A stretch of DNA of 32,000 nt, from contig NQJD01000001.1 in NCBI GenBank assembly GCA_004284765.1, forward strand, positions 180,001 to 212,000, read 5' to 3'. The notes beneath the pieces are model-generated. The model was not told the DNA's origin and made no database searches. It saw only the letters and a list, made by a program, of their open reading frames with translations. A program made the position numbers and the translations under genes. The DNA is from Candidatus Electronema aureum (GTDB taxonomy: Bacteria; Desulfobacterota; Desulfobulbia; Desulfobulbales; Desulfobulbaceae). Below are positions 9,804-29,503 of this stretch, piece after piece (position 1 is the first letter of the stretch; every line of letters starts with the position of its first letter).

Positions 9804-9830
9804 GGGATAATTCAGGCAAAATGAAAAAAA

Positions 9831-10477: not shown

Positions 10478-10496
10478 AACGTTCTCTCTTTTGCCA

Positions 10497-10524
10497 CACC
10501 GTCAGTAGGTCGCAAGTGACGGTG
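10497..10524. promoter_or_regulatory. 8-bp inverted repeat between the methyltransferase stop and the antitoxin start (operator or terminator candidate)
   Basis: CACCGTCA (10497-10504), a 12-nt loop, then TGACGGTG (10517-10524). There is no U tract on the minus strand, so it is not a canonical terminator. The position fits TA autoregulation. Confidence 0.25.
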
Positions 10525-10591
10525 GGTGTTACTGTTTTTCCTGTTTCTCAAACTATTTCATGAGTATTCTAACTCCTTGAGGAGCAAAAAG

Positions 10592-11503: not shown

Positions 11504-11530
11504 AATCTTATCCTTAATAAGGAATAATTA

Positions 11531-13153: not shown

Positions 13154-13168
13154 GAGGATCAGACTATA

Positions 13169-14128
13169 TCAGAGAATTCCGGCTCCGGCAACAGCGGCTG
13201 TATAAAAATTACTCAAATCCGCCTTACCGAGGACGCTATCGCCGATTTTATCCAAAACTTTCTCACGAATTTTCGACTCATCCGCAGTGCCCCACCAATT
13301 CTTGGGGAAGGCGAGGTCATTAGCCTGCCCTTCCAGCATGGACAGATTATAATCCTTGCTGTCGGTGATGTTGTTGTCGCTCAACAGCATGGCTTTGACC
13401 GCATACAGAATCACGCCTTTGCCGTTGCCGCTGATATTATTGAACTGCACCTTGCCGTCGGCAAGGTTCTTGCCATAAATTCCGAAGAACTCGTTCTTGC
13501 TGATCTCGTTGTGAGAAACAACCATGCCGTCGCCGACAACCACGCCGCCGCCGTTTTCAGTGATCAGGTTGTTCTCCACGAAAATTTCACACTTGATCGG
13601 ATTGTCCTTCAGGTTCTTGTTGCCGATGGCGGTGCCGTTGTGCTTGAACTCGTTGCTGGCAACTTTCACTTTGGAGGAATGCGCATGAACACCGGTGTCC
13701 GCATACAGGATCACGCAGTGTTCTAGCACATTGTCCACGCTGCTGTTGAAGTTGATGCCGCCCCAGTCGCCGGGCTTCGGCTCTTTTTCCGCGCTGGTGA
13801 AGGTTATTTTTTTTTCTCTACTGCCTTGAGCAAGTAATTTGCCTTGAATAAAAAGCTCTGCCCGAGGGAAATGGTTCTCCTTTTCTTTTTCCGGGAACAG
13901 CTTGTCCGGGCCAAAAGGCTCAACTTTGGCAAAACGGACTATGGTGCCGGGCATGATGGTCAAAGTGACATTTTTTGCAATCTGCACATCACCTTTGATT
14001 AGAATTTCCCCAGACCAAGCAGTGTCTTTGTCGATTACCCCTTTATTGACTACTGTTTCCGCGCTGAAAGCGGGCTGGAAACTCAGAAACATCGCCGCTG
14101 TAGCGGCAAAAAAAGACAGTATTTTCAT
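13169..14128 (-). CDS. secreted right-handed parallel beta-helix repeat protein (NosD/CASH-like)
   Basis: 319 aa with signal peptide MKILSFFAATAAMFLSFQPAFSA. It has repeated N-x-I/V-x-x-N turns (ENNLITENGGGVVVG, HNEISKNEFFGIY, FNNISGNGKGVILY, LSDNNITDS). SD GAGGA precedes ATG 14128. Confidence 0.7.
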   Translation of the reverse strand: MKILSFFAATAAMFLSFQPAFSAETVVNKGVIDKDTAWSGEILIKGDVQIAKNVTLTIMPGTIVRFAKVEPFGPDKLFPEKEKENHFPRAELFIQGKLLAQGSREKKITFTSAEKEPKPGDWGGINFNSSVDNVLEHCVILYADTGVHAHSSKVKVASNEFKHNGTAIGNKNLKDNPIKCEIFVENNLITENGGGVVVGDGMVVSHNEISKNEFFGIYGKNLADGKVQFNNISGNGKGVILYAVKAMLLSDNNITDSKDYNLSMLEGQANDLAFPKNWWGTADESKIREKVLDKIGDSVLGKADLSNFYTAAVAGAGIL

Positions 14129-14157
14129 TATATCCTCTTAGAATGAGAATGTTGCGC

Positions 14158-15090
14158 TTAGTGCTTGTCGTAGGGGGGCATATTGCAGCGTTTCAGCTTT
14201 TCCCGGATGATATCGTACTCGCTGTCCACTGCTGGGGCAAAGCCATCTAAGCCCATCCGCTTCAGCACCTTCAGCACCTCGCCATCGATCAACACGGTCT
14301 CATCTTTCTTCAGATTAAGAGCCAGATTTTTGACCTTCTCCTTCAAAGCCGGATCAACATGCGGGAGTGCGCCAATGGTGCAGTACGGCATCGGCTCGCT
14401 CTCAGCGATGATGTTGTAGTCATCCAGATTGATGATCTCACTTTTTGCCATCCGGTCAAGGTCAATGCGCGGCGCGGCACCGACATCATATTTGCCGTAT
14501 TCTACGCCGTACATGATCTTGTCATGCTTGAGCGAGCCAGGCGGAATGTCATAACGGGCAAGGTCGGTCTCCGGGTCTATGCCGTTTTCCAGCAGCATCG
14601 CATACTGGGCCATGTAGCCGAACGGAGCCAAGGCCGGGCCGAAGAGCACTGTTTTTCCCTTGATATCAGCGATGGTCTTGATACCGCTTTCCTTGCGGGC
14701 GATCAGGGTGCCTGTGGCTTTGTGGCCGTTGCGTCCCTGCATATCTACTCCCAAGAAATCGGCCTTGAGCCGCTCCTTCAGTACCACCGCAACGGCTGAG
14801 TTGACGTGAAAGAAATCGAACTCCTTGTTCTTCGCTGCCGCTTCTACATCAAAGGTATTCTTCAGTACCATTTCCACCTTCCGGCCCAGCTTTTCGCTGA
14901 GATAGGCGGTGAAGGGGGCAAAGCGCTCAGAGGACAGCTCGCGGCTATCACAAATCATATAGCAGAAGCGGAGCGGCGGTTCCGTGCTTTCCGCAGCGGT
15001 CTTTTTGTCCTGTTCACCGTTACAGGCCTGGAGCGAGAACAGAGCTGCGGCGAGTAAACAATATTGCGTAATTTTTTTCATTGTTTGCAT
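14158..15090 (-). CDS. PhnD-like (phosphate/phosphonate-type) periplasmic substrate-binding lipoprotein
   Basis: 310 aa with the lipobox LFSLQAC. It shows the type-2 SBP pattern (LRFCYMICDS..., FDFFHVNS, GKTVLFGPALAPFGY, YDVGAAP) typical of the PhnD/TAXI-like family. No permease or ATPase gene is adjacent. Confidence 0.65.
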   Translation of the reverse strand: MQTMKKITQYCLLAAALFSLQACNGEQDKKTAAESTEPPLRFCYMICDSRELSSERFAPFTAYLSEKLGRKVEMVLKNTFDVEAAAKNKEFDFFHVNSAVAVVLKERLKADFLGVDMQGRNGHKATGTLIARKESGIKTIADIKGKTVLFGPALAPFGYMAQYAMLLENGIDPETDLARYDIPPGSLKHDKIMYGVEYGKYDVGAAPRIDLDRMAKSEIINLDDYNIIAESEPMPYCTIGALPHVDPALKEKVKNLALNLKKDETVLIDGEVLKVLKRMGLDGFAPAVDSEYDIIREKLKRCNMPPYDKH

Positions 15091-15111
15091 TCAGATGGGA
15101 AAGGAGGGAGT

Positions 15112-15606
15112 TCAGGACTGGCTGATCAGTTTGATCTCGTTCTGGACAGCGGCAGCACCTTCTGGGCCGGGAGCTAACTCGCCTGCCTTCTTCAGGGCGG
15201 CTGTGGCTTGTTCAGCCTGCTTGAGCTGCTCATGAACGAGAGAAAAATGCACATGCAGCATGGCATCTTTGTCGTTGATCGCCAAGGCGCGTTCCAGATA
15301 TTTCAATGCCTCATCAGCCTTCTTTTGCTTGAGCAGGATGATGCCCATACCGTCCAGCGCATCGAAATTTGATGTATCCTTTTTTAGCACACCTTCTAAT
15401 TCCTGCACAGCCAAATCGAGCTGCTTGGTGCGAACATAGGCCATAGCCAAATTGTTTTTAGTTTCCGCATCATTGGCATCCATGTACAGCAGCATCTTGT
15501 ACTGCATGATCTGGACTGAATCCGGTAGTTTGGAAATATCGCCGTGTGCTGCCGCTGAACCTGCTGACATGGCCAGCAGGAAAAGGGCGAAAAGCAGTTT
15601 TTGCAT
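15112..15606 (-). CDS. secreted TPR-repeat protein
   Basis: 164 aa with signal peptide MQKLLFALFLLAMSAGSAAA. Three to four TPR units are visible (NNLAMAYVRTKQLDLAVQELEGVLKKD, DALDGMGIILLKQKKADEALKYLERALAIN). SD GAGAGG precedes ATG 15606. Confidence 0.75.
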   Translation of the reverse strand: MQKLLFALFLLAMSAGSAAAHGDISKLPDSVQIMQYKMLLYMDANDAETKNNLAMAYVRTKQLDLAVQELEGVLKKDTSNFDALDGMGIILLKQKKADEALKYLERALAINDKDAMLHVHFSLVHEQLKQAEQATAALKKAGELAPGPEGAAAVQNEIKLISQS

Positions 15607-15618
15607 TGTCTTTGCCTC

Positions 15619-16197
15619 TCAGATCAGTTTTTGAGCTTTCAAGATATCTTTAGCCGCAGCTGCTGGGTCACTGCCTTGGCTTTTCTGGATCATTTCTTGC
15701 ACCGTGGCATCATTGACCATGCCGCTCAGTTTGTTGATTACTCGATCTAAAACCGGAAATTTACCCAGCGCATCGCGGGGAGAAACCGGCACAGCTATGG
15801 AGGCTTCAGCCTGCTGCGCTGCTGGCCCCTTAAAAGCGAACGGCTTCAGCCAGACGATATTTTTGTTTTCCATATAGAATTCTTTAGCCTTGGTATAGGC
15901 TTCCTGCTCATCTTGGGGCTGCTCACCACCCATGCTTGCCAAGGCGGGCTTGAGGTACTGAATGCAGACATCAGTGGTGCAAGAACCGTCTTTGCTCTCT
16001 GGATTCTCAACCAAATTAACCGTAGTACCAGTGCGCTCGTTGATATAGGTGGCCATGAGCTGGCCGATTGCCTTTTGCTCCGCCGAGCCATCAATCGACA
16101 AATTGAGAATCCGACCCACACAACTGTAGCTGGGGGTGGCGGTCAATGCCGTCAGCAGAACAGTGCCTGAGAGCAGAGCCGCAAGTTTTTGTGCCAT
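15619..16197 (-). CDS. secreted OpuAC-like (glycine-betaine-type) substrate-binding-domain protein, short form
   Basis: I chose the start at ATG 16197 (SD GAGGA 8 nt upstream). Alternative in-frame starts are 16227 and 16251. Signal-like N-terminus AALLSGTVLLTALTA. The segments LNLSIDGSAEQKAIGQLMATYINERTG, VWLKPFAFKG and FPVLDRVINKLSGMVNDATVQEM resemble OpuAC-family segments. Confidence 0.45.
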   Translation of the reverse strand: MAQKLAALLSGTVLLTALTATPSYSCVGRILNLSIDGSAEQKAIGQLMATYINERTGTTVNLVENPESKDGSCTTDVCIQYLKPALASMGGEQPQDEQEAYTKAKEFYMENKNIVWLKPFAFKGPAAQQAEASIAVPVSPRDALGKFPVLDRVINKLSGMVNDATVQEMIQKSQGSDPAAAAKDILKAQKLI

Positions 16198-16369
16198 TTT
16201 TTTCCTCACTTTTTTATTGAACTTCATCAGGTGAAATGAGTATATGCTCATAACAAGGTATCCTGTTTTTGCTGAAAATAAAAGAAAAAGAGTCAGTCAT
16301 CCCAGCTCATGCTGGTCTGCCGCTGAAGCAGAGACGAAGCAACAACCATGTTCAGAAATAGCATATCAG

Positions 16370-17752
16370 TTACAGCCAGTCCAGCACTTTCCACCAAAAA
16401 AAATTGATTGGCAGAAGGACGAAGACTGTAACCAAGGCTAAAGGAACGCATATCTTGGCGGCACTGGACAATTTTTCACCGGCAAGCTGAAGGCCGACGA
16501 CAATCGGTGGCCCCTGATAGGGCAGCAGCACGGTGGCAAAACCTGTCACCTGCATCATAAGCAAGGATTCTGTTTTCAGACCTGTGGCTTGTGCCAAGCT
16601 ATCAGTAAGCGGAGTAAACACCGCAGGCACGGCAGGCAGGGTAGTGACAATGCCGGTGAGCGCAGAAGCTATGCTGATCGACATGTAGTTGATAAAATCC
16701 TGCTGCGGAGCCAAGGGCAGTAACTTGAGCAAAGCATCAGCAAAAATGCGATCCAAGCCTGTTTTGCCGATCATTCCGCCCAGACCGAGGATCCCGGCGG
16801 TGAAAAAAATTGAAGCCCAGTTGAGTTTCTGATTGAACTGCGCGGTGCTAACGATGTCGATGCCAGGCATCATCAAGAAAAATGCTCCGCCAAGAGCAAT
16901 CCACGCTGGGGAAATATGATGAAAAAAATCAGTGAGCCACAGCATAAGCATAAGCGGCAACACAGCCGAGAGAATCATCTCATTACGGGTCAATGGCCCA
17001 GCAACGTTTTGGTTCTGCTCAAGTCGTTCGACAGCTTTATCTGGATAAAAGAAAACAATCAGGGCGGCGATAATCACCGCTTTGGCTAAGGTCAGGAGCG
17101 GAAAATGCAGGAGCAGATAGGAACCGTAGAGCAGAGAAATTTTGTATTTGGTCTCAGCCATACCTGCCAGCACCACGTTGGGTACATTGGCAGGCAGGAT
17201 GCCAAAGGCCGGAATGTAGGTACCGAGAATAACTGCTAGCATGATGCCAGTGCGGCCTTTTGAGCCTTCTCTAAAACCGAAATGATCGGCGATAGAAAGT
17301 GCTATAGGGATCAGCAAAACAACCCTACCCATCGAAGAGGGCATCAAAAAGCTGAACAGCACCACTGCCGCTACTAAGCCGCCGATGATTTTCACATAAC
17401 TGCCGTGCAGCTGAGTTGCGGCATATCGTCCGATTCTGCCGCCCAAGCCGGTGGAGCTAATCGCCGCGCCGATCACAAGGCCGCCAAAGACTAACCAGAC
17501 CGCTGCCGAAAAAAAACCGGAAAAAACTATCTCTTTCGGCGCAACTGAAAAAAGCATTGCCAGCAGGAAAAAAAGCAGCGCAGTGAGATGTTCAGGAATC
17601 AGGGCAGTTGCCCAAAAAGCAAGAGTCAGGAGAGCAATGGACGAGGCCTTTGCTGCTGCTGAAATCGGAGCAAATTGGAGAAAGACAACTCCCGCAATGG
17701 ACAGAAGCAGGGTAAGGATCTGGAAGGCGTTTTTGCTGCTAGGCTGGCTCAT
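16370..17752 (-). CDS. SLC13/DASS-family anion permease (ArsB/NhaD superfamily)
   Basis: 460 aa and highly hydrophobic, with a two-fold internal architecture. It has hairpin-like SxxP/NVPN motifs (GILPANVPNVVLAG, TTLPAVPAVFTP) typical of DASS transporters. Confidence 0.7.
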   Translation of the reverse strand: MSQPSSKNAFQILTLLLSIAGVVFLQFAPISAAAKASSIALLTLAFWATALIPEHLTALLFFLLAMLFSVAPKEIVFSGFFSAAVWLVFGGLVIGAAISSTGLGGRIGRYAATQLHGSYVKIIGGLVAAVVLFSFLMPSSMGRVVLLIPIALSIADHFGFREGSKGRTGIMLAVILGTYIPAFGILPANVPNVVLAGMAETKYKISLLYGSYLLLHFPLLTLAKAVIIAALIVFFYPDKAVERLEQNQNVAGPLTRNEMILSAVLPLMLMLWLTDFFHHISPAWIALGGAFFLMMPGIDIVSTAQFNQKLNWASIFFTAGILGLGGMIGKTGLDRIFADALLKLLPLAPQQDFINYMSISIASALTGIVTTLPAVPAVFTPLTDSLAQATGLKTESLLMMQVTGFATVLLPYQGPPIVVGLQLAGEKLSSAAKICVPLALVTVFVLLPINFFWWKVLDWL

Positions 17753-17986: not shown

Positions 17987-19177
17987 ATGAGAATCATGCC
18001 CAATTTTTCCAGCCGAATTAAAACGCATATCATCGGGATGTTTGCTATTTTTTTTCTGATCACCCTGCCCGTAACGGTCATCAGCTTTTTGCAAACCCCT
18101 GAGTATGAAGTAAGCTCCAGCATTTTGCTCCGACAGGGCAAACGCGGCAGCGCAGACCTAAAAACTGAGTTAGCTGTCCTGCAAGGCAATGTATTGGCCG
18201 AGCAGGTGTTAGCCGCAGTGGGTGCGGAGCAGCTTTTTCCTGAGCCGGGCGAGGTGGGAAGAGTGCGGCAATTTCAGCAGCGATTAGAGGCGCATCTGGT
18301 CCGTCGCTCTCGTATCGTGGAAATACGCTTCCGACATCCCGACCCTGAACTGGCTGTTAAAACAGTCACTACGGCAGTGAGGCTGTTCGGACTGGAGTTA
18401 GAAAAGCTCGATGATCCTCAGTCTGTGCTGCTGGAAGAAGAGCTGCTGCTGCGCAGGAAGCAACTTCAGCAGGCACAGAACGTCCTTTCGATGTTCCGGC
18501 AGAATAGCAGACTGCACACACCTGATGGACAAATGCGGCATCTATCGATTGAACGCGGGCGGCTTGAAGCAGTGGTGGCCGAAGAGAGCAAAAGGGAATT
18601 AGAGTTAGCCGGTGAACTGGATGAACTGCGGCGGCAGTTCGCTGCAGTGCCGGTTAAGACAGAAGCAAGCAGAAATGAATTTTTGGAGATGAAACTGTAC
18701 CGACACGAACTACTGCGCAAGTATGACGAGAAAAATCTATTAATTGCCTCAGTTGAAGAGCAGTTAGCAAAGATACGGCAACAGTTGCAAGGCGGCGATG
18801 CGTTGGAAGCACTTGCGGATTGGATTGTACTGGCTAATGCCGCGCACAGCAGGCAAAAGGAGGGCAAGGAAGTAGCGCAGCTCCAACTTAGTCAGCTGAC
18901 TGACCAGCAGCGGCAGCAAGTGGAGCAGGATGATCTCTTCAGCAGCTTAGAAGTTGAGGTGGATAAAAGCAGGGAGCTGTACGCCCAGCAGCTCAATAAA
19001 ATTGAAGCAAATCGGAAAGCTGGAGCGAAGGAAGGACAGGTAACGGTCATTGAACAGCCCCTGCTGCCCTTAGAGACAGTCAGGCCAAAAAAACTGCGCA
19101 ATATCTTAACTGCAGTTTTTTTCGGCCTGCTGTGCAGCCTGCTGTACGTTTTTTGCCGACAGCAGCGTAAACGGTGA
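17987..19177 (+). CDS. polysaccharide chain-length determinant (Wzz/GumC, PCP family) without a kinase domain
   Basis: I placed the start at ATG 17987 (the track start is a TTG). TM1 is IIGMFAIFFLITLPVTVISFL, followed by PEYEVSSSILL and a long coiled-coil periplasmic region. The Pro-rich segment EQPLLPLETVRPKK precedes the C-terminal TM ILTAVFFGLLCSLLYVF. Confidence 0.7.
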   Translation: MRIMPNFSSRIKTHIIGMFAIFFLITLPVTVISFLQTPEYEVSSSILLRQGKRGSADLKTELAVLQGNVLAEQVLAAVGAEQLFPEPGEVGRVRQFQQRLEAHLVRRSRIVEIRFRHPDPELAVKTVTTAVRLFGLELEKLDDPQSVLLEEELLLRRKQLQQAQNVLSMFRQNSRLHTPDGQMRHLSIERGRLEAVVAEESKRELELAGELDELRRQFAAVPVKTEASRNEFLEMKLYRHELLRKYDEKNLLIASVEEQLAKIRQQLQGGDALEALADWIVLANAAHSRQKEGKEVAQLQLSQLTDQQRQQVEQDDLFSSLEVEVDKSRELYAQQLNKIEANRKAGAKEGQVTVIEQPLLPLETVRPKKLRNILTAVFFGLLCSLLYVFCRQQRKR

Positions 19178-19181
19178 GGAG

Positions 19182-19207
19182 GGTGAAAAAGCCGCTACTT
19201 TTTCACC
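19182..19207. terminator. perfect 10-bp hairpin between convergent genes (bidirectional terminator candidate)
   Basis: GGTGAAAAAG (19182-19191), loop ccgcta, then CTTTTTCACC (19198-19207). It starts 5 nt after the Wzz-like TGA and overlaps the stop and last codons (EVKK-TAG) of the minus-strand gene. Confidence 0.5.
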
Positions 19208-19716
19208 TCTCCACTTGCCCCAGGTGCAATGCCATTGAACAAGAAATTTTGCTGCATCTCCTGCCTCATCTTTGGATCAGCAAATGTTTCCTGCATGGTC
19301 TGCTGCATGATTTTCAGCATTTTTTCATGAATAGCCGCTTGGACAGCCGGGTCAATTTTCAGCGACGCAATAGCGGCATCGATCTGGATTCCTCCAGTTT
19401 TTCCCTTCTGATCGTCTTGCGACTGGGCGGCGGTCAGGCCAAGCGTATTCTGTAGTTGAAAGCGTAAATTCTGCTGCATCGCTGCTGCATCGCCGGGTAA
19501 TGCTTGCTGCGTTTCATTTACGGTTGCTGTTTCGCCCTGAACAGAAGTCTGCAACTGATCATTCGCCGGAGGACTGTTTGCAGTGGAATCCTGTAGCGTT
19601 TCCTGCTCTCCGGCACCCAGCCCATCGTCTTGCTGCTGCGCTGCTGCTGAACCGGCCAGCAGTAAACAGCAAACAGCACTGAGAGCGAATTGGGCTACCG
19701 ATAATTTTTTCCTCAT
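19195..19716 (-). CDS. secreted Gln/Met-rich protein, paralogous N-terminus to the 19731 gene
   Basis: 173 aa with SD AAGGGAGAAAAAGC-ATG and signal peptide MRKKLSVAQFALSAVCCLLLAGSAAA-QQQ. The C-terminal segment is HEKMLKIMQQTMQETFADPKMRQEMQQNF. No known domain recognised. Confidence 0.65.
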   Translation of the reverse strand: MRKKLSVAQFALSAVCCLLLAGSAAAQQQDDGLGAGEQETLQDSTANSPPANDQLQTSVQGETATVNETQQALPGDAAAMQQNLRFQLQNTLGLTAAQSQDDQKGKTGGIQIDAAIASLKIDPAVQAAIHEKMLKIMQQTMQETFADPKMRQEMQQNFLFNGIAPGASGEVKK

Positions 19717-19730
19717 GCTTTTTCTCCCTT

Positions 19731-20384
19731 TCAGAAGCGCGGGTTTTGCTGCGCAGGCGCGGTAGGCAAAGGAACTGCCGAGGGTTGTATTTGATTCTGC
19801 ATTTGTCCGGTCATTTGCTGCATCATCTGTGCCTGCATTTTCTGCTGAACAGCAGTCATGTCAGGCATTCCCTGTGGCATCTGCCCACCCGTCTGCTGGG
19901 CTGCACCCTGCATTTGGTTAGCTGGGGAAGCGGCTTGCATTTGTCCGGTCATCTGCTGCATCATCTGCGCCTGCATTTTCTGCTGAATGGCAGTCATGTC
20001 AGGCATTCCTTGTGGCATTTGCCCGCCTGCTTGCTGGGCTGCACCCTGCATTTGATTAGCTGGAGAAGCCGCTTGCATTTGTCCGGTCATCTGCTGCATC
20101 ATCTGCGCCTGCATTTTTTGCTGAATGGCAGTCACGTCAGGCATTCCCTGTGGCATTTGCCCGCCTGCCTGCTGGGCAGCACCCTGCATTTGATTAGCTG
20201 GAGAAGCTGCTTGCATTTGTCCGGTCATCTGCTGCATCATTTGCGCCTGCATTTTTTGCTGAATGGCAGTCATGTCAGGCATTCCTTGGCTCGACTGCTG
20301 GGCATCTGCGGAGCCAACCAGCAAAAGGCAGCACGCTGTTGCTACCCCTATCGTCAATTTGCCTGCGGACTGTTTTCTGTTCAT
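19731..20384 (-). CDS. secreted Met/Gln-rich tandem-repeat protein (3.6 x 46 aa)
   Basis: I moved the start to ATG 20384 (track M23), behind SD AAGGGAGAATTAAGC. Signal peptide MNRKQSAGKLTIGVATACCLLLVGSADA-QQ. The repeat unit is MPDMTAIQQKMQAQMMQQMTGQMQAASPANQMQGAAQQAGGQMPQG, which by hand count has 9 Met and 14 Gln in 46 residues, and no His, Cys or aromatic residues. Confidence 0.7.
   Translation of the reverse strand: MNRKQSAGKLTIGVATACCLLLVGSADAQQSSQGMPDMTAIQQKMQAQMMQQMTGQMQAASPANQMQGAAQQAGGQMPQGMPDVTAIQQKMQAQMMQQMTGQMQAASPANQMQGAAQQAGGQMPQGMPDMTAIQQKMQAQMMQQMTGQMQAASPANQMQGAAQQTGGQMPQGMPDMTAVQQKMQAQMMQQMTGQMQNQIQPSAVPLPTAPAQQNPRF
19797..20288 (-). repeat. 138-bp tandem repeat, about 3.6 copies, inside the Met/Gln-rich CDS
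   Basis: (C/T)TGCATTTGTCCGGTCAT recurs at 19797, 19935, 20073 and 20211, an exact 138-nt period. Copies 2 and 3 differ at about 6 positions by eye. Confidence 0.9.
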
Positions 20385-20661
20385 GCTTAATTCTCCCTTT
20401 TTTTCATCAATGAGCTGCCGCGCCGCCCCCCGGCCCAGCAATGCGTTCATTTTGTTATATCGTAAAGGTTACCTGCCCGCAATTCTCTTTGTCAATTGGT
20501 TTTTCCCGGTCGTGAAGTTGTGGAAAAAGTAATTGGCATTTTCAGGTGCGCCAAGCAGAATTCAAACCAAAATTCTACGGCACAGAAAACCGTCTTTTTC
20601 TCTCTTGCCTCTCTTTTTTGTTGTTACAAAATAGGCTAATGTTACAGTGCAGTTACTCCTC

Positions 20662-20689
20662 TTGACTTTTTTGAATATGCTTGTATAGT
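20662..20689 (+). promoter_or_regulatory. candidate sigma70 promoter for the integrase
   Basis: TTGACT (20662-20667), a 16-nt spacer, then TATAGT (20684-20689), in an AT-rich intergenic region about 58 nt upstream of ATG 20747. Confidence 0.4.
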
Positions 20690-20746
20690 TCCACAAAAAA
20701 TGTGGGGAAGATTATGGGGAATAAAAAATACTGCGGAGAACGAACT

Positions 20747-21886
20747 ATGGCAAGTATGAAACGGTTTAAGACCAAATATGCCGGAGTGTTTTATATCGAA
20801 GGGACGGCAGCTAACGGAAAAAAGCCTGAAAGAATCTATTACATCCGCTACAGAAAGGATGGAAAACTTGTGGAGGAAAAAGCAGGCCGTCAGCATCAGG
20901 ACGACATGACCGCTGCCAAAGCTTCCGGTCTTCGCTCCGACAAAATAGAAGGCAGGCAACAAAGCAATCGAGAACGACGTAGAGCGGCGGAAGAGGTTAG
21001 CTCGCGATGGACAATAGGCCAGTTATGGGAAATATATCGCGCCAAATTATTTAACAGCGGGGCAACCAGAACCGATTCGGGTAGATATGAAAATCATCTC
21101 AAGCAGCTTTTCGGTGACAAAGAGCCGCATGAGCTTGCCAAGTTAGACATCGACCGGATACGGATCAGCCTGCTGAAAACCCATTCGCCACAGACCGTTA
21201 AGCATGTGCTGACCCTGCTGAAAAGAATTATCAACTACGGATGCGGCTTAGGGGTGATTGCCCCACTTTCATTCAAGATAGAAATGCCACCCGTTGATAA
21301 CATCAAGACCGAAGACCTTAGCCATGAGCAGCTACAACGCCTTTTCGAGGTGCTGGAGGCAAGTCGCCATGTTATGGCGGCAAATATGATGAAATTAGCC
21401 TTATACACGGGGATGCGGCGCGGTGAGCTGTTCAAGCTGGCATGGAATGACATAGATTTTGAGCGCGGCTTCATTCATATCCGGGAGCCGAAGGGGGGGA
21501 AGAGCCAGAAAATTCCGCTGAATAGCAGTGCGAGGAAGTTACTGCAATCCATCCCTAAGCAGGGCAGCGAATATATTTTTTCGGCCAGAAATGGCGGGCC
21601 GTGCAAGGATATTGCCAAGGAGGTGCGGGCCATCAAAGAGGCTGCCGGGCTACCTGAAGATTTCCGCCCGCTGCACGGGCTGAGGCATGTCTATGCCACC
21701 ATGCTTGCCAACAGCGGTAAAGTTGATATGTTTACCCTGCAAAAGTTGATGACTCATAAAAGCCCTCAGATGACGCAGCGTTACGCCCATTACCGCGATG
21801 AGGCGATGCAGCGGGCTGCAAACGAGGTTAGCGGGATATTGGAGGATGCGCTTTCAGTGCGGAGTGACGATAAGGGCGCTAACTAG
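20747..21886 (+). CDS. tyrosine-type site-specific recombinase / phage integrase
   Basis: I chose the start at ATG 20747 (SD GGAGAA 6 nt upstream; the track start is a TTG). Catalytic elements are TGMRRGEL (Arg I), HGLRHVYAT (His-x-x-Arg), LMTHKS (His) and the nucleophile region QRYAHY. Confidence 0.9.
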   Translation: MASMKRFKTKYAGVFYIEGTAANGKKPERIYYIRYRKDGKLVEEKAGRQHQDDMTAAKASGLRSDKIEGRQQSNRERRRAAEEVSSRWTIGQLWEIYRAKLFNSGATRTDSGRYENHLKQLFGDKEPHELAKLDIDRIRISLLKTHSPQTVKHVLTLLKRIINYGCGLGVIAPLSFKIEMPPVDNIKTEDLSHEQLQRLFEVLEASRHVMAANMMKLALYTGMRRGELFKLAWNDIDFERGFIHIREPKGGKSQKIPLNSSARKLLQSIPKQGSEYIFSARNGGPCKDIAKEVRAIKEAAGLPEDFRPLHGLRHVYATMLANSGKVDMFTLQKLMTHKSPQMTQRYAHYRDEAMQRAANEVSGILEDALSVRSDDKGAN

Positions 21887-22779: not shown

Positions 22780-23535
22780 TCAATCCGCTTCTGAGCAGCA
22801 GGATGGAGAAGATTGTTCCGCAGGCTCTTTCAACGCCGCCGCAACAGTCGCCAGCTCAATCAGCACGCCTAGCCCTTCCTGAACTTCCTTGCGTTTCAGG
22901 GCAGACATCATGCCGAAAATGCCGGTGACGGGTTTCGCATTGTTCAGGTCAATCGCCTTCATCTTCACGCTGACCCGCTCGCCAATTGCCAGCATCCGTT
23001 CAAAGTCATCAAACAGGCCGCGATGCTTGAGGCTGTCTAAACGTTCAATGATGTCGTTGAAAACCGGGCCGCTCAGGTGCGCGGCATCTCGTCGCATATC
23101 CATCATGGAACTGAGCATCTTCATCAGCTCGGCCATATTGCCCATGTTGACGATGAACTGCCCGATCAGCTCGCGGAGGTTCTCGCCCTCAAAGCCGTGC
23201 AGGGCGGTCTGGAGCTGGAGCGTCAGCTCATGGAACATGTCCTTGGCGTAGGGTGCGGCATCGCGCTTGAACTCCATGATGCTGTCCAGTGTCTTGACAG
23301 CGTCAGCGATGTTTCTGCTCGATGCCAGCGACTGGCCGATCATGTCGCCGACCTCCTCCAAATCCACGCGCTTGTCCAAGCCGCTCAAGCGCGCCGTGGC
23401 CTCCCGGACGATGGAGTGAATCAGCGGCTCCAGCTCCTGCTTCAGCTCCGCATAGGGCCTGACCGCCCGTTTGGCTTCCCGCACTTCCTCGGTGAGTTCA
23501 TCGAGGCGGGCGAGAATCTTTTCCTCATTGGTCAT
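22780..23535 (-). CDS. DUF1641 domain-containing protein
   Basis: 251 aa, helical. The C-terminal VTGIFGMMSALKRKEVQEGLGVLIELA is the DUF1641-type segment. SD GGGGG lies 7 nt before ATG 23535. It sits 11 nt downstream of the flavoprotein gene, the usual pairing. Confidence 0.65.
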   Translation of the reverse strand: MTNEEKILARLDELTEEVREAKRAVRPYAELKQELEPLIHSIVREATARLSGLDKRVDLEEVGDMIGQSLASSRNIADAVKTLDSIMEFKRDAAPYAKDMFHELTLQLQTALHGFEGENLRELIGQFIVNMGNMAELMKMLSSMMDMRRDAAHLSGPVFNDIIERLDSLKHRGLFDDFERMLAIGERVSVKMKAIDLNNAKPVTGIFGMMSALKRKEVQEGLGVLIELATVAAALKEPAEQSSPSCCSEAD

Positions 23536-23546
23536 GACACGCCCCC

Positions 23547-24776
23547 TTAGTCCTGAACCTTGCCCGCCAGAGACATCTGCGCCTCAAGCGGCAGCTCCTC
23601 GCCCGTCAGCAGTTTGTTCCAATACACCCATTTGAACATCATCTTGCCCCAGTGGTTGGTCTTGGATTCGCCGAGCAGAGAGAACGGCCCAAGACCAGGC
23701 AGCGGGAACTTGCCCGGTAGCGGCTCGTACTTGTAGTTGAAGTCAATCAGGGATGCCTTGCCGAAGCCGGTCTCGATGAAGCAGTTGGAATGGCCGTCGT
23801 AATCAGGACGGATCGGCTCGCCGTTGATCTCGCGCAGGAAGTTCTCCACCATGATTTCGGCGGAGAAATGGGCGACCGAACCGGCCTTGGAGGTGGGGAT
23901 GGTCGTGTTGTCGCCGAGTACGTACATGTTCTCGTGATGCTCTGCCTTCAGGGTGTGGTTGTTCGTCTTGACATACCCGACTTCATCCATCGAAACCTTG
24001 GAGTTGACCAAGTAGCGCGCGCCGACGTTGGGCGGAATGGACACCAGCAGATCCCACTCGATTTCATCCCCGGCTGCGGAAATCAGCTTGTTGTTGGCGC
24101 AGTCAACTTCGGCGAGAATGAACTCGGCGGTGACCCGGATGTTCTTCTCCTTCATCACCTTGGTGAAGTAGGCGGAGGCCTTGGGCTTGGTGAAGGCACC
24201 AGTCATCGGGGTGACAAAGTGAATATCTATCTTGTCACGCACGCCGCGCTCGGTGAAGTACCAGTCGGCAAGGTAAACGAATTCCAGCGGCGCAACCGGG
24301 CATTTGTAGGGAAATTCGGCAATATTGAGCACCATCTTGCCGCTGTTGAAGGTGCGCAGCCGCTTCTCCAGATTCACTGCCCCTGCCAAGGTGTAGAAAT
24401 CAAATATCTTGGTCTGCCAGCCGTCCATCATGCCGGGAATTTCCTGCGGCGCGAGGCTCACGCCGGTGCAGACAATGATCTTGTCATATTCATATTTGCC
24501 CGCTGTGGTTTCCACGGTCTGCGTCGCAGTGTCAACGCCGACAATCTCATCCACAACAAAGTTGATTCCTTTGCCGATGAACTCGCTGCGCGGGCGGACA
24601 AGCTCCTCCGCCTTGTACATGCCAAAGGGGACAAAAATCAGGCCGGGTTGATACACATGCCGGTCGTCTTTGTCAATGATTGTGATCGACCACTCGTTGC
24701 GGTCCAGCCGCTTGCGCAGTTTGTTGGCAACCATCGTCCCTGCGCAACCTGCGCCAAGAATCACTAACTTTTTCAT
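23547..24776 (-). CDS. NAD(P)/FAD-dependent oxidoreductase, sulfide:quinone-oxidoreductase-like
   Basis: I moved the start to ATG 24776 (track M23; SD GGAGAA). The N-terminal dinucleotide fold is KKLVILGAGCAGTMVANKL. It also has KCPVAPLEF and LGDNTTIPTSKAGSVAHF, as in the SQR/FCSD-type pyridine-nucleotide-disulfide oxidoreductase family. Confidence 0.75.
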   Translation of the reverse strand: MKKLVILGAGCAGTMVANKLRKRLDRNEWSITIIDKDDRHVYQPGLIFVPFGMYKAEELVRPRSEFIGKGINFVVDEIVGVDTATQTVETTAGKYEYDKIIVCTGVSLAPQEIPGMMDGWQTKIFDFYTLAGAVNLEKRLRTFNSGKMVLNIAEFPYKCPVAPLEFVYLADWYFTERGVRDKIDIHFVTPMTGAFTKPKASAYFTKVMKEKNIRVTAEFILAEVDCANNKLISAAGDEIEWDLLVSIPPNVGARYLVNSKVSMDEVGYVKTNNHTLKAEHHENMYVLGDNTTIPTSKAGSVAHFSAEIMVENFLREINGEPIRPDYDGHSNCFIETGFGKASLIDFNYKYEPLPGKFPLPGLGPFSLLGESKTNHWGKMMFKWVYWNKLLTGEELPLEAQMSLAGKVQD

Positions 24777-25005
24777 CTTGCCTTTCTCCGTTGAACATTC
24801 TGTAGAGCTGACCAATATAATTGCGCCTTTCACGCACGACATCTCACCTAAAGCTATCGTATATCACAAAGCAGCTTGCCCCGTCAAGGCTGATTTGCCA
24901 CGGCGTGGCATTGTTCGCTGCGAAGCATCCTGAAGCCTGGAGATTACAACTTGTTTATTTTACTTATTGTCTCAAGCTGAAGGCGTTTCAGTCTGCTGAA
25001 AAAAC

Positions 25006-25730: not shown

Positions 25731-28700
25731 TCAAGGAGATATTTCACCACAGGGCGTAACTGTTCCATCCCTGCCGATGATAACAGAATTCCCCGTTGCT
25801 GTTTCAGCAAGCACCAGCTTGTCGCCCGGCTCTGCAAAGCCTTGGAAGCTGCCGTCTCGGTCATAGACTGCGGCGCAGGAGGTGTTGCTTGTTGCGGTGT
25901 TTTCTGCTGCGTCGATGGTGAATGCCACTGGATATTGATTGCAGGTGCCGATAAACATTAGATTGCTGTCCTGATTAAAGCTCATGGCCCGGCCAAGATC
26001 ATCGGATACGCCGCCGCCTTGGCGCAGCCATTCTGGTGTGCCGTCGGCGTGGTATTTGATCATGAACAAATCACTCTCCCCGAAGCTGGTCAGGCTTTTA
26101 AAGACGGTATCTGCGTCATAAAAATCACAGGACTGGCGGAAGTCTCCGGCAACATAAACCTGTCCTGCATCATCCGCCGCAACAGCTCGGCCTGTGCAGT
26201 TGCTGGTGCCGTTTGCCTTCTGCGCCCAGCGGACATCACCGCTGTCCGCCCTGAATTCGGCAACGAAGAAGTTTGTTGCATCGCCGGTCGTCAGGGTGAT
26301 GGGAGATGTGCCGCTGAAGGTGATTGAGTCCTCGTAATAACCGGTTGCCAGCACAGAATCCGCGCCTTTTGCTGCGACAGACAAGACACTGCCTGACCCG
26401 CCGTCAACCTGTTTGGCCCAGACCAAAGTTCCGTCCAACGTGTATTGAGCAATAAATGGATCCGTATTGCCATCTATAGAATTCAAGGTGGTGGCCGATG
26501 CGCCGCTGCCCAAATTCAGGGTGCCGGTAAACATGCCGCCGATATGCAAACGGCCCGCCGCGCTGTCCACAGCCAGACTTTCTCCGTAGTCATCCCACTG
26601 TCCACCTGCCCGTTCCGCCCATGCCAGCGCACCGGCAGGAGTGTATTTGGCTACAAAAATGTCATGAGCGCAACCGGGTTCTCCGCTTAAAGTTTTAGCG
26701 ACAGCAGTTCCATTGAAGAAATTCATTTCAGAATAATACGAGCCGCTGAGATAGAGATTGCCTGTCGTGTCTACTGCGGCCTTGGACTCGATAATACCAT
26801 ACTCGCTTGAGATGGCCTTTCGTGCCCAGAGTAACTCACCAGAAGCGGTGTACTTTGCAATGTAGAGCGCATGTTTTTCGGTAGGTGCAGTCAGGGTGAC
26901 AGGTGCATCCGTTCCCAGCGTGATGCTGCTTTGGAAGGTACCCACCGCAAAAATATTTCCTGCGTCATCACGGGCTAACGCTTGGACACCTGGAGGCAGC
27001 GCCCATGAATCGCAGTTGACCTTCTCTTGCACCGTGACATACACGCTTGCAGAGGAGGTGCCACGGCTTGGACTTTTCACCGTGTACGTCAAGGAGTCTG
27101 AGCCGGTGAAGCCGAAGTCCGGCGTATAGGTCAGCGTGTTGTCTCCGTTGATTAAAGCCGTGCCGTGGGCTGGGTCGCTGACGGCAATGACCTCCAACGT
27201 TTCGCCTGCTGGCGGATTGTCATTTGTCAGCACCGCAATGAGCACTGCAACGTTTTCTTTTGTGACCGCCGCATCATCCACGGCCAGAGGCGTTTCCGCA
27301 TTTGCATCAGCAATGGTGAAATATCCGTCGCTCAGGTCAGTGGTTGCCGGATCTGCGGAATGCGTCACTCTGATTTGATAATCTCCGCCTTCGGAAAGAT
27401 CGGCTGGGACATGCCAAGAATAGCTGTTGTCGGATGCGCTGACTGTTTGAACGGCTTGCTCAATGCTTCGATAAAAGTTGCCCGCCTTGAGCAGGTCAAT
27501 ATTCACCGTGCCGTTGAAACTGCTTTTCCAGATGATGTTTCGATTTGTGCCAAAACCGAAGACATCGCCATTGACCGGAGAGAGCACAGTCAAAGTTTCT
27601 GGCCATGTGATGCTGAAGCGGTCGCTGTCATCAAAGATTGAACTGTCTGCATTGCTGGTGATCTTGATCCAGTAATGATCTTCCGGCTGAAGTTCCGGTA
27701 CAGTCCAAGTATAAGAACCAGTGTTCGCCGCCGCCGTCGCAATGGTTTGATTGAAGCTGACGCTCTTATACAGATCAATCTTGACTGTGCCGCCAATATT
27801 GCTGGTCCATTGAATGGTCTGCTGTCTGTCGGACAGCCAAGACGTTGCGGCATTGGGTGTGAGCACGGTCATGCTTTGATCAGCAGCAACCTGAATGCTG
27901 ACCGAAGCCTGGTTGTTGCTTTCGTTGGCTTCCAGCACATTGTCGGCATAATCGGCATAGAAGATGATATACTGCTGACCAACGGGCAGGTTTTTGGGAA
28001 GGGTCAGAGTTTGTGAAAAAGACTGGCTCTGGCCGGGCAGCAGGGAACCGAAATAATCTGTACTCAGCAGGATGTCTGCGCTGTCCCAAGCGGCATCAGC
28101 GGAGAGATAATAACCGATACGTGAGGCAGCCAAAGTGCCGGTGCCGCCGATGTTGGTCAGAGTTGCATTGACGGTGACGCTTTGACCGGGAGCGACATTT
28201 CCCGGAGAAACCCTCGGATTGCTGACAGCCAGATCAGCGCCCGTTCTCACCTCAATGCGGACAGCCGCCGCATTGTTGCCTTCATTGGCCTCAGCAACAG
28301 TGTTTTGGTCATCTGCCCGGAAGATCAAGTGATAATCCCCGGAAGCCAAGTGTGCCGGAATGGTGATTTCCTGTTCAACAAAGGCGTTGCGTCCGTCAAT
28401 GATGCTGCTGAACTGTTGCCTATACAGCAGAGTGTCTGCCGCATCCCACGTGCTGCCGTTAGTGGAAAGATAACAGGCTAATGCGGATGCGTCTGCCGGG
28501 CCGCTGCCGATATTGGAAACTCTGGCCCGTGTCAATGTTGTTGCGCCCGGCCCAAGCTGGAAGGGTTTGGCTTCAGCAGTGTCAACGATCAGGTCAGCGG
28601 CACCTTTGTTATGGTTGCCGGGGCCGGGGCAAGTGGCTTTCAGGAGCCAATCCACCAGCCATTTGCCATAGAGATCTTCGCGCTGTTCAATGCTGATGTT

Positions 28701-29453: not shown

Positions 29454-29503
29454 ATCTGTATCCCTAATAGAAAGAAATAATCTGATAAAATTCCGAATAG
29501 ATC

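Follow-up and report, generated by a model that had tools for sequence, protein, structure and literature searches.

A split Met/Gln repeat gene of the cable bacterium Candidatus Electronema aureum encodes exported helical proteins of a small orphan family

The stretch of DNA analysed here (32,000 nucleotides, hereafter the window) is an exact match to the closed long-read genome of Ca. Electronema aureum GS (OW818638.1), a freshwater cable bacterium. Two adjacent minus-strand genes lie within it, as an earlier note on this DNA had described. Gene A (20384..19731, stop codon 19731-19733) encodes a 217 aa exported Met/Gln repeat protein, and gene B (19716..19195) a 173 aa exported protein that is 100% identical to CAK8719737.1 / TAA76302.1 of Ca. 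Electronema aureum. In the deposited genome, the gene A call begins at an internal ATG (20273), giving a 180 aa product that lacks the signal peptide; the true start is the ATG at 20384. A longer open reading frame from ATG 20450 (239 aa) was rejected, as it corresponds to a conserved non-coding leader with an unconserved reading frame: locus L001 contains a frame shift and a stop, and L003 has no ATG. The two genes are separated by 14 nt, with the gene B ribosome-binding site TGAAAGGGAGAAAAAGCATG in the spacer region (19714..19733, minus strand). No terminator-like site was found between them on the minus strand, and from the sequence they are probably on one transcript.

Upstream of gene A, positions 20466..20507 (minus strand) contain an A-tract, a perfect -35 TTGACA, an 18-nt spacer and a -10-like TAACCT (TAnnnT). 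The same succession of A-tract, TTGACA, 16-18 nt and TAnnnT also precedes the homologous gene in L018, L014 and L019, while the promoter-region TTGACAAACAGAATTGC is conserved in L003 and L004. From this conservation alone, we regard the element as a putative sigma-70-type promoter; a consensus scan missed it due to the weak -10 hexamer. In the 5' leader, a GC-rich stem-loop UGCUGGGCCGGGGGGCGGCGCGGCA (20416..20440, minus strand) is nearly invariant across four freshwater Electronema loci, with nine predicted pairs and no covariation. For the 81-nt leader as a whole, the predicted fold has -20.7 kcal/mol (z=-2.2) and leaves the ribosome-binding site unpaired; an Rfam scan of the region returned nothing significant. 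A leader motif CATTGATGAAA, the ribosome-binding site AAGGGAGAA and the gene A ATG follow (20382..20412, minus strand); every orthologue, distant ones included, retains the motif, GGAG and ATG. The ribosome-binding regions of genes A and B (AAAGGGAGAATTAAGCATG and AAAGGGAGAAAAAGCATG, respectively) are near-identical, as previously noted, except that the gene B version is 1 nt shorter than the pattern given at the time.

Both products carry homologous Sec-type signal peptides, in agreement with the earlier reading. These are MNRKQSAGKLTIGVATACCLLLVGSADA for gene A (20301-20384, minus strand) and MRKKLSVAQFALSAVCCLLLAGSAAA for gene B (19639-19716, minus strand), each predicted to be cleaved before QQ and consisting of a basic n-region, a hydrophobic core and an A-x-A preceding Gln. 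This layout is found in all relatives and, as read from the sequences, indicates soluble Sec/SPI export for the family. Lipoprotein export was rejected, there being no lipobox before Cys and the Cys being unconserved (absent in P0006-P0009), as was Tat export, since the signal peptides contain no twin arginine (RR). The mature gene A product comprises 190 aa, of which 57 are Gln (30%) and 33 Met (17.4%), together 47.4%; only 9/190 residues (~5%) are charged. The earlier statement that the protein is free of His, Cys and aromatic residues holds for His, Trp and Tyr, but two Cys occur within the signal peptide (the mature form has none) and a single Phe occupies the last position. The description of both genes as Met/Gln-rich applies to gene A only: the mature gene B product, 147 aa long, contains 6 Met and 25 Gln and is thus not Met-rich.

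The gene A repeat array (19800..20282, minus strand) is composed of three 138-nt units (20145-20282, 20007-20144 and 19869-20006) with a half unit at its end (19800-19868). Tandem Repeats Finder places it at 19798-20285, with a period of 138 nt, 3.5 copies and 94% matches. The 46-aa unit MPDMTAIQQKMQAQMMQQMTGQMQAASPANQMQGAAQQAGGQMPQG contains exactly 9 Met and 14 Gln, confirming the original count, and consists of a 22-residue helix followed by a Pro/Gly/Gln/Ala linker. In the AlphaFold2 model of gene A, helices span residues 38-59, 84-105, 130-151 and 176-196 (pLDDT 70-80), the linkers are disordered and the helices do not pack together (pTM 0.22). The gene B model has predicted helices at 77-91, 123-146 and 148-161; both models are low-confidence (pLDDT 58 for gene A and 48 for gene B, pTM 0.21-0.22). 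A comparison of 36 units from 14 proteins reveals Met at unit positions 11, 15, 16 and 19 and Gln at positions 8, 9, 12 and 18 in every case (36/36). Positions 4 and 7 exchange V/M/I freely, and positions 10, 13 and 20 are variable. The invariance of the Met/Gln core persists despite near-saturated synonymous divergence between species (pS 0.8). Species also differ in the number of array copies, which ranges from 1 to 4. In the C-terminal domain, the homologous helix uses L/I/M. It had been proposed that the Met spacing lines one face of a helix. This was not borne out: the hydrophobic residues of the array helix (7 Met and 1 Ile) span ~180 degrees at 100 degrees per residue (shuffle p=0.07), and the hydrophobic periodicity peaks near 3.9 residues; at 3.6 residues per turn, an amphipathic helix with one clean face is not supported. 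The array helices are weakly hydrophobic.

In sister freshwater Electronema, a single gene carries the signal peptide and N motif together with 1-4 Met/Gln helices and, at the C-terminus, a helical domain. MAFFT alignment reveals that genes A and B of E. aureum together correspond to this single gene, gene A retaining the repeats and gene B the C-terminal domain. Alignment to the single-gene orthologues identifies in gene B, besides the N motif DDGLGAGEQETL, three minus-strand regions: repeats that persist as vestiges stripped of their Met (19492-19590), a helix in degenerate form (19432-19491) and, well conserved, the helical domain of the C-terminus (19198-19395). The gene A tail NQIQPSAVPLPTAPAQQNPRF (19734..19799, minus strand) is what remains, in decayed form, of the beginning of the C-terminal domain: in the MAFFT alignment its QIQPSAVPLPTAPAQQ falls opposite QIDAAIASLKIDPAVQ in both gene B and the orthologues. 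No DNA similarity is detectable here, indicating that the duplication is old; a recent duplication was also rejected because A and B have no DNA similarity beyond the ribosome-binding site. The alignments thus confirm the previously suggested paralogy, and show an old tandem duplication followed by complementary loss in the E. aureum lineage, whereby gene A kept and expanded the Met/Gln array, and gene B kept the C-terminal domain while its repeats decayed, Leu and other residues taking the place of Met. The same A/B split was seen again in a second lineage from an independent sample, with amino-acid differences.

The array is limited to freshwater Electronema. A short form without it occurs in the saltwater E. 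halotolerans and on metagenome contigs of more distant relatives, and this repeat-less form is ancestral; short and long forms have in common the sigma-70-type promoter and a strong ribosome-binding site. The family amounts to ~20 proteins among the billions searched, with 14 relatives among 5.8 billion clusters and 9 matches among 1.84 billion representatives. Comparison with Pfam, NCBIfam and the PDB identified no relative. Sub-threshold Pfam matches for gene A (HILPDA, DUF6489, RAC_head and EspA_EspE), none with a single stretch passing alone, were read as compositional. A search of full-text literature and supplementary files found no mention of the family proteins or their accessions. This is a tiny, undescribed orphan family, in keeping with the initial impression that it matches nothing described, and sequence matches place it in cable bacteria only, as far as named members go.

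We also considered whether gene A is functional at all: it might be a low-complexity artefact, a decaying duplicate or a repeat misassembly, or the real gene might be on the other strand. An antisense frame of 214 aa, His/Leu-rich (19746..20390, plus strand), is open along the full length of the gene in every species, short-read assemblies are interrupted within the repeats, and the exact 217-aa product is missing from a collection of 15 billion proteins. However, the antisense frame is open in all orthologues as a result of the sense codons lacking TTA, CTA and TCA; it has no ATG, and gene callers selected the minus strand in this region. Among the 17 variable repeat columns, 14 are synonymous in the sense frame, against 18% synonymous sites (p=2e-8), and the other three are conservative changes; in the antisense frame nine columns alter the residue and eight do not. 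Furthermore, in 12 orthologues a single reading frame joins the Met/Gln repeats to the signal peptide and to an ordinary C-terminal domain. We therefore judged the antisense frame non-coding, and the earlier caveat that it might be the true coding frame falls away. Assembly artefact was rejected on the grounds that the window matches a closed long-read genome and that the second sample has the same split with amino-acid differences. Compared with that lineage, pN/pS is 0.16 for gene A and 0.32 for gene B, and the ribosome-binding site and leader are conserved. A non-functional origin is highly improbable and, on this sequence evidence, largely refuted already. The substitution patterns and signal peptides show genes A and B to be real genes under purifying selection, coding for what are predicted to be non-enzymatic, Sec-exported helical proteins.

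Convergent with gene B, with its stop 17 nt from the gene B stop, lies a gene for a polysaccharide-co-polymerase (PCP)-like bitopic membrane protein of ~396 aa (17987..19177, plus strand) with a GNVR domain and no kinase. Its hydrophobic segments (~14-35 and ~372-392) suggest two transmembrane helices around a large periplasmic helical domain, with the GNVR region before TM2. It matches Pfam GNVR at 1.6e-10, shows weak PCP/Wzc NCBIfam matches with scores far under the cut-offs, and aligns weakly with Wzc residues 289-446 (the periplasmic/TM2 region, E=0.01). No Wzz (PF02706) or kinase profile match was obtained, and no polysaccharide-synthesis genes (including wzx/wzy/wza) adjoin it in the window; we therefore refer to it as PCP-like and do not assign it as Wzz or Wzc. 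In at least 8 distinct loci (the window, L001, L003, L004, L012, L014, L018 and L019) the family gene converges on this partner at a distance of 0-26 nt, while the other flanks differ; partner orthologues are 38-40% identical in two confirmed comparisons. On the short contig P0017, the family gene is found without a convergent partner. The family gene is thus almost always paired tail-to-tail with a PCP-like inner-membrane protein, although convergent adjacency is weaker evidence than a common operon and all loci come from one clade. A loose parallel is provided by RmpD, a small membrane protein from the rmp locus rather than a secreted repeat protein. RmpD is described as binding Wzc and altering chain length in Klebsiella, and is likewise a small accessory protein tied to a member of the polysaccharide-co-polymerase family (PMC10294653), whereas an interaction between the present family and its partner is suggested by synteny alone.

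No dedicated regulator gene adjoins the family loci. The 32-kb window contains no msr (msrPQ/yedYZ), cop/cus/pco/sil, metal sensor or SigF/NrsF-type sigma/anti-sigma genes, and msr, cop/cus and sigma/anti-sigma genes are likewise missing from the flanks seen at the seven other loci. Within the window and these flanks, the search for such genes proposed in the earlier note was therefore negative. Ties to a nearby sulfide:quinone reductase operon and to a DASS/NosD-like/YeeE-like cluster were rejected, neither being conserved outside freshwater Electronema. A selenocysteine in the type III SQR was also rejected (the stop codon is TAA, with no in-frame TGA).

Taking these sequence features together, we tentatively favour an envelope-linked role, in which an exported array of thioether-faced helices binds something and the core job of the family is tied to the PCP-like protein. 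The core role would lie in the periplasm or cell envelope, coupled to the PCP-like membrane protein, with the C-terminal helical hairpin possibly acting as the docking module. The Met/Gln array would be a lineage-specific add-on of short helices on flexible linkers, each helix presenting an invariant Met thioether strip flanked by Gln. Such an array could offer a multivalent, uncharged and reversible binding surface that associates with itself or holds a partner or small soft ligand, its role being binding or scaffolding rather than catalysis. As gene A would function with no C-terminal domain covalently joined to it, the array may be regarded as a self-sufficient module. From sequence, we would rank possible ligands of the strip as self or partner association in an envelope matrix, then Cu(I)-type soft metals, then hydrophobic clients. 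A generic binding strip is, by its nature, hard to falsify. We know of no bacterial periplasmic example of Met-rich self-associating matrix proteins. The yeast Pbp1 Met-rich domain, abductin and mollusc shell-matrix proteins (PMC7591529) do contain Met-rich low-complexity repeats, some of them also Gln-rich, that self-associate or form matrices with polysaccharide; these are however eukaryotic, mostly non-helical and unrelated in sequence to gene A.

The leading specific alternative, less probable but possible on the sequence evidence, is a soft-metal sponge, in which the Met strips (MxxxM, MM, MxxM), together with the Met-bearing linkers QMQG and GQMPQGMPDM, would chelate Cu(I)/Ag(I) by thioethers alone, acting as a buffer for both ions in an oxidising periplasm. 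Once bound, the metal might make the helices fold or link them to one another, as is reported for SilE, and the array might be a freshwater adaptation, low chloride and sulfide leaving more free Cu(I). Copper handling often involves Met-rich periplasmic sequences, so that the prior for a metal role is high. Thioether-only Cu(I) sites are established in the Ctr1 Mets motifs and in CusA/B, and PcoE/SilE, CopA/PcoA, CopB and CueO likewise possess Met-rich periplasmic segments with i, i+3/i+4 spacing. The Met-rich segments of PcoE/SilE-type proteins are disordered and become helical once bound, as SilE does upon metal binding, and the gene A helices with their disordered linkers recall this behaviour; the strings MQG/QGM recall the DHS(Q/K)MQGM octapeptide. 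A metal role would also fit core positions that are Met only, never Leu, Ile or Val, an exported product with a Cys-free mature form, the presence of the array in freshwater Electronema and its absence from saltwater E. halotolerans, and a variable copy number suited to a capacity trait. In contrast, PcoE/SilE and the Cop/Pco proteins combine His with Met (and Asp/Glu), while gene A has no His and almost no acidic residue; His-Met motifs (HxxM/MxxH, DHSxMxGM) were not found, with 0-1 His in all orthologues. Those proteins also lie in cop/pco/sil/cus operons under metal sensors, and the window and the flanks seen at the eight loci contain no cop, cus, pco, sil or metal-sensor gene. The promoter is common to the Met-poor ancestral forms and has no MerR-type 19-20-nt spacer, no similarity to any solved metal-binding protein was found at E<=10, and the equally strict conservation of Gln would go unexplained.

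By analogy with MrpX of Azospira suillum, which works with YedY1Z1 under SigF/NrsF (PMC4436054), the exposed Met could instead act as an oxidant sink in the cathodic, O2-reducing cells, being converted to the sulfoxide and re-reduced by a periplasmic Msr, as in MrpX-YedY; we consider this unlikely. MrpX is also small, exported, non-enzymatic and plausibly solvent-exposed, with ~17-20% Met, O2 is reduced at the cable-bacterial cell envelope, and in the exported, largely unfolded gene A product (17% Met) Met is nearly the sole readily oxidised side chain, with no His, Trp or Tyr and no mature Cys. However, MrpX is 44% charged and is encoded within a yedYZ operon adjacent to a sigma/anti-sigma pair (PMC4436054), whereas the gene A product is ~5% charged and 30% Gln, consists of invariant helical repeats without sequence similarity to MrpX, and has no yedYZ/msrPQ or SigF/NrsF-type pair beside its gene within the flanks covered at each locus. 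The idea is further weakened by the very slow reaction of Met with H2O2 (~1e-2 per M per s, vs 3.8e7 with hypochlorite; PMC4436054), which would make a sink useful mainly against chlorine species, unexpected in sediment. A sink requires Met abundance, not fixed Met and Gln positions on a helix, and has no connection to freshwater habitats. Still a little less likely, and again drawn by analogy, is a holdase whose flexible Met-lined surfaces hold unfolded or hydrophobic periplasmic clients, which could include conductive-fibre subunits or cofactors. The Met-specific hydrophobic strip on amphipathic helices, the multivalency with flexible linkers and the periplasm as an ATP-independent location are in line with this. 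In the SRP54 M domain, calmodulin and Get3, flexible Met side chains likewise line a hydrophobic binding face; those methionine-bristle proteins are however folded domains with mixed Met/Leu/Phe grooves, while the array consists of isolated Met/Gln helices, and the likeness is an analogy of principle only. The CpxP/Spy/ZraP proteins are also small, exported and all-helical, and (L/V)(D/S)PxxQ...I/M strings in the family look superficially LTXXQ-like. Kinship with CpxP/Spy, suspected from LDPAVQ-type strings, was rejected: 13 members and 5 short relatives gave no match to LTXXQ (PF07813) or Metal_resist (PF13801) at E<=10, profile searches against PDB sequences (solved Spy/CpxP/ZraP included) returned nothing relevant, and the hairpin-dimer fold is not predicted for the family. 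Nor was there a profile match to Skp, SurA or other chaperones at E<=10, or any solved relative. The weak hydrophobicity of the array helices also argues against a holdase, as does their restriction to freshwater Electronema, given that all cable bacteria assemble such fibres.

A more specific extension of the envelope-linked reading, to which we likewise give little probability, is that the small protein and its PCP-like partner form a module specific to cable bacteria that builds or organises the basal sheath, with the array protein as an abundant matrix component. The basal sheath is the periplasmic protein/acidic-polysaccharide layer carrying the conductive fibres; in such a setting the sulfur-rich Met/Gln array of freshwater Electronema might have a part in handling the nickel cofactor with its sulfur ligands, or sense redox changes via reversible Met oxidation.

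The observation made in the earlier note is thus confirmed, and its interpretation is partly supported. Beyond it, the analysis identifies the cable-bacterium host, the PCP-like membrane protein as the one conserved neighbour, and genes A and B as two halves that complement each other and correspond to one gene in sister species. This division, with array and domain on separate genes, is a natural experiment, indicating that the modules can act as separate polypeptides. We found no described bacterial counterpart of a His-free, nearly charge-free Met/Gln helix with both residues invariant; it would provide a clean system for studying thioether-only surfaces in an oxidising compartment, with respect to metal, self-association and redox sensing. 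Centimetre-scale electron conduction by cable bacteria runs along periplasmic fibres with protein constituents yet to be named, which makes any periplasmic protein that is restricted to the lineage and probably well expressed a worthwhile candidate. The truncated gene A model and the repeat-broken short-read assemblies would hide the protein from secretome screens and, were the sheath reading true, the array protein would have been missed by secretome and metalloprotein screens for those same reasons. The conserved pairing with a PCP-like protein suggests a role for the family, and points to an unstudied envelope module of cable bacteria.

Two minus-strand open reading frames, separated by 14 nt, form the adjacent pair described in the earlier note: gene A (20384..19731, 217 aa, starting at the ATG that follows AAGGGAGAA) and gene B (19716..19195, 173 aa). 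Gene A contains a tandem array, identified by Tandem Repeats Finder at 19798-20285 (period 138 nt, 3.5 copies, 94% matches), in which each 46-aa unit MPDMTAIQQKMQAQMMQQMTGQMQAASPANQMQGAAQQAGGQMPQG carries 9 Met and 14 Gln. The mature A protein (190 aa) contains 57 Gln and 33 Met, or 47% of its residues. Of the 147 residues of mature B, 6 are Met and 25 are Gln; B is thus not Met-rich, so that the proposal of a tandem Met/Gln-rich pair holds for A only. The suggested lack of His, Cys and aromatic residues is likewise correct in part: mature A is devoid of His, Trp and Tyr, but has a single C-terminal Phe, while Cys occurs in the signal peptide only. The N-termini of both proteins consist of a basic n-region, a hydrophobic core and A-x-A followed by Gln. 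As neither signal peptide has a lipobox or twin arginine, and the signal-peptide Cys is not conserved among relatives, this layout suggests that A and B are exported via Sec and cleaved by signal peptidase I.

Gene B has a 100% match in CAK8719737.1 / TAA76302.1 of Candidatus Electronema aureum, and the 6.5-kb stretch around the gene matches OW818638.1, a closed 2.94-Mb genome, base for base. The OW818638.1 gene call for A is on the correct strand and uses an internal start (ATG 20273); the deposited model is 180 aa, begins MTAIQQKM and is without signal peptide. Short-read assemblies of E. aureum break off within the gene A repeats, and neither a 217-aa nor a 239-aa gene A product was found among 15 billion proteins. 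ATG 20450 was rejected as the start because 20450-20384, although conserved as a leader, does not keep its reading frame between species.

Gene A is preceded by an A-tract and a perfect TTGACA, with TAACCT after a further 18 nt; the same layout is found ahead of the short forms of the family. The leader (20385-20455, minus strand) contains a GC-rich stem-loop at 20416-20440, UGCUGGGCCGGGGGGCGGCGCGGCA, which hardly varies among four freshwater Electronema species, is better conserved than the coding sequence and matched no Rfam family. The 81-nt leader including this stem-loop folds with -20.7 kcal/mol, the ribosome-binding site staying unpaired; the stem-loop could serve to stabilise the mRNA or act as a regulatory element. 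From the promoter layout and the folded leader with its free ribosome-binding site we infer that expression may be strong and driven by a promoter of the housekeeping type, with no dedicated stress sensor involved.

An antisense frame (19746..20390, plus strand, 214 aa, His/Leu-rich) is open across all of gene A and every orthologue, and constitutes a trap for gene callers. This openness is expected given that the sense codons are never TTA, CTA or TCA: the frame is stop-free purely because reverse-complemented Met/Gln/Ala/Gly codons yield no stop. The substitution pattern among the gene A repeat copies was used as a strand test. Across 17 variable columns, 14 changes fell in the third codon position of the minus frame, three in the first and none in the second, corresponding to 14 synonymous and 3 conservative changes (M/V, I/V and A/T). 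As synonymous sites make up only 18% of the minus frame, this 14/17 excess has p=2e-8. The antisense frame, by comparison, has a changed residue in 9 of the 17 columns. The Met/Gln frame is furthermore joined to a signal peptide and an ordinary C-terminal domain in 12 relatives. These two observations rule out opposite-strand coding and bear out the minus-strand frame that the earlier note had made its proposal depend on. The minus strand is the coding strand.

A word-indexed search of 5.8 billion clusters yielded 14 relatives. Those that are named all belong to Electronema (aureum, PJ, VV and JC), with a further relative on contig DHWV01000112.1, 'Desulfobulbaceae bacterium UBA5173'. A filter-only HMM scan of 1.84 billion representatives returned just 9 proteins at E<=0.001, and the family searches recovered no Electrothrix-labelled protein. 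Pfam, NCBIfam and PDB contained no relative even at E<=10; sub-threshold Pfam matches to HILPDA, DUF6489 and RAC_head look compositional, with no stretch passing alone for gene A. The scarcity of relatives in such large collections and the empty Pfam, NCBIfam and PDB searches agree with the earlier impression of an unrecognised family. A and B belong to an undescribed orphan family of unusual two-letter (Met/Gln) helical design.

The other freshwater Electronema have one gene whose product comprises a signal peptide, an N motif DDGQGAGNYETL and 1-4 Met/Gln units, followed by a single degenerate helix and a conserved C-terminal domain (GGLQIDAAxxxLKxDPAVQAAINEKMMKIMEQTMRETFADPKMRQEMQQRF). The family also has a short form (125-169 aa), found in the saltwater Ca. 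E. halotolerans and in metagenome contigs, with the degenerate helix and C-terminal domain but without the Met/Gln array. One short-form contig (L012) derives from an Electronema-like organism, judged by its acetyl-CoA carboxylase genes. The array itself is limited to the one genus. Comparison with the single-gene form shows the A/B pair to be a split version of that gene. Gene A comprises the signal peptide and array followed by a decayed remnant of the C-terminal domain start (QIQPSAVPLPTAPAQQ vs QIDAAIASLKIDPAVQ), while gene B retains the signal peptide, N motif, degenerate helix and C-terminal domain. Vestiges of the array persist in B (SPPANDQLQ vs SPANQMQ; TVNETQQAL vs DVTAIQQKM), with Met substituted. 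DNA similarity between A and B is restricted to the ribosome-binding site, which places the duplication as an old event. An independent sample (L020), whose B copy is 89% identical, shows this arrangement of A tail, spacer and B again, with differences at the amino-acid level, and pN/pS between the two lineages is 0.16 (A) and 0.32 (B). Both genes are kept by selection, and the array would be functional without a covalently attached C-terminal domain.

An AlphaFold2 model of A, built with a 13-sequence alignment, predicts four separate 22-residue helices (38-59, 84-105, 130-151 and 176-196; pLDDT 70-80) connected by disordered Pro/Gly/Gln/Ala linkers, with tertiary packing absent (pTM 0.22). 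The B model is poor (pLDDT 48) and places helices in the degenerate repeat and C-terminal domain. Conservation was counted over 36 units from 14 proteins: Met is present in 36/36 units at positions 11, 15, 16 and 19 and in 32/36 at position 23, and Gln is equally invariant (36/36) at positions 8, 9, 12 and 18. Positions 4 and 7 interchange V/M/I, and positions 10, 13 and 20 are free to vary. In the C-terminal domain, the homologous helix has Leu, Ile and Met at equivalent positions. Despite a between-species synonymous divergence near saturation (pS about 0.8), not one core Met has changed to Leu, Ile or Val in these 36 units, which indicates that Met itself is selected for, and Gln no less so. 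The idea that Met lines one face of the helix is correct only in rough terms: hydrophobic periodicity has its peak near 3.9 residues, and on a helix of 3.6 residues per turn the hydrophobic residues (seven Met, one Ile) cover about 180 degrees (p=0.07).

The sole conserved neighbour is a convergent, polysaccharide-co-polymerase-like gene (17987-19177, plus strand), with a stop-to-stop distance of 0-26 nt. Its product of ~396 aa has two hydrophobic segments at its ends and a long helical periplasmic region, contains a Pfam GNVR domain and weakly resembles Wzc in its periplasmic/TM2 part; Pfam and NCBIfam profiles identified no kinase domain. The pairing is present in E. aureum, VV, PJ, UBA5173, E. 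halotolerans and the L012, L014 and L019 loci, the exception being one 1.6-kb contig. The partner orthologues compared have 38-40% identity, and the paired loci differ in their outer flanks. Directly upstream of gene A is a tyrosine recombinase of the phage-integrase family (20681-21886, plus strand), and the same flank in other Electronema genomes holds IS1 transposases, AlpA/DUF3987 or helicase genes (compare L001 1-6400 and L003 2758-9900), so that this side of the locus looks like a mobile-DNA hot spot. Divergent from the co-polymerase-like gene, a minus-strand cluster (9255-17752) is kept in three freshwater Electronema genomes and missing at the equivalent E. halotolerans position. It encodes, in order, a DASS symporter, a 210-aa OpuAC-like protein, a TPR protein, a PhnD-like binding protein, a NosD-like beta-helix, a second TPR protein, a YeeE-like sulfur-transport protein, a methyltransferase and a Se/S-carrier protein.

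Elsewhere in the window, a type III sulfide:quinone reductase (22780-24842, minus strand) matches the NCBIfam 'selenoprotein subtype' model with 628 bits, yet its ORF lacks any in-frame TGA and stops at TAA; a DUF1641 protein follows. Two large presumed surface proteins (25731-31786, minus strand), one of 1258 aa with CARDB, Big_9 and cadherin-like domains and one of 760 aa with S-layer homology (SLH) and PGAP1-like hydrolase domains, may be related to the cable-bacteria surface layer. Between two convergent genes, a 23-nt unit is repeated in 3.6 tandem copies (5627-5708), most with a 7-bp inverted repeat GGACTTA-N6-TAAGTCC, and could form a protein-binding array or REP-like element. The ORF at 2033-3064 (minus strand) has a strong Pfam match to Spherulin4 (spherulation-specific family 4, E=4.7e-48).

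With regard to function, the conserved synteny suggests that the family functions in the envelope alongside the co-polymerase-like protein, and we tentatively favour an envelope-linked binding or scaffold role. The C-terminal hairpin would be the likely docking module, and the Met/Gln array a freshwater-lineage add-on of variable length, presenting multivalent, uncharged thioether strips for reversible binding. A precedent for a small protein acting on a polysaccharide co-polymerase is RmpD-Wzc (PMC10294653), although RmpD is unrelated. The leading specific rival, a thioether-only Cu(I)/Ag(I) buffer, is possible if somewhat unlikely: the Met specificity of the core, the restriction of the array to freshwater and the precedent of Met-rich periplasmic copper proteins speak for it, but no metal genes or sensor were seen in the flanks at eight loci, His and acidic residues are lacking, and the conservation of Gln is left unexplained.

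An MrpX-like oxidant sink is improbable, given that the reaction of Met with H2O2 is slow (PMC4436054), that msrPQ/sigma context is missing and that Met is conserved by position; the window and flanks examined contain no msr, cop/cus or sigma/anti-sigma genes. What the gene A protein shares with MrpX, PcoE/SilE and the CopA-type Met-rich repeats is limited to export and a high Met content; their defining features (composition, His-Met motifs, operon context) are lacking wherever a comparison could be made, and an LTXXQ profile match is also absent for the family. A chaperone function, in the form of a methionine-bristle holdase, seems less probable again, and a non-functional or antisense reading is very improbable in view of the minus-frame substitution pattern. 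The leftover probability belongs to an explanation not yet imagined.

Overall, the observation in the earlier note is confirmed and its interpretation holds in part. These comparisons show an exported, selected, non-enzymatic helical family that is confined, as far as named members show, to cable bacteria, organisms of high current interest. The cable-bacteria fibre sheath is reported to consist of protein resting on a basal layer with abundant acidic polysaccharide (PMC8238962), a structure to which the co-polymerase-like partner might be relevant. It is thus tempting to speculate that the envelope-linked family may have a role in the fibre-bearing periplasmic sheath.
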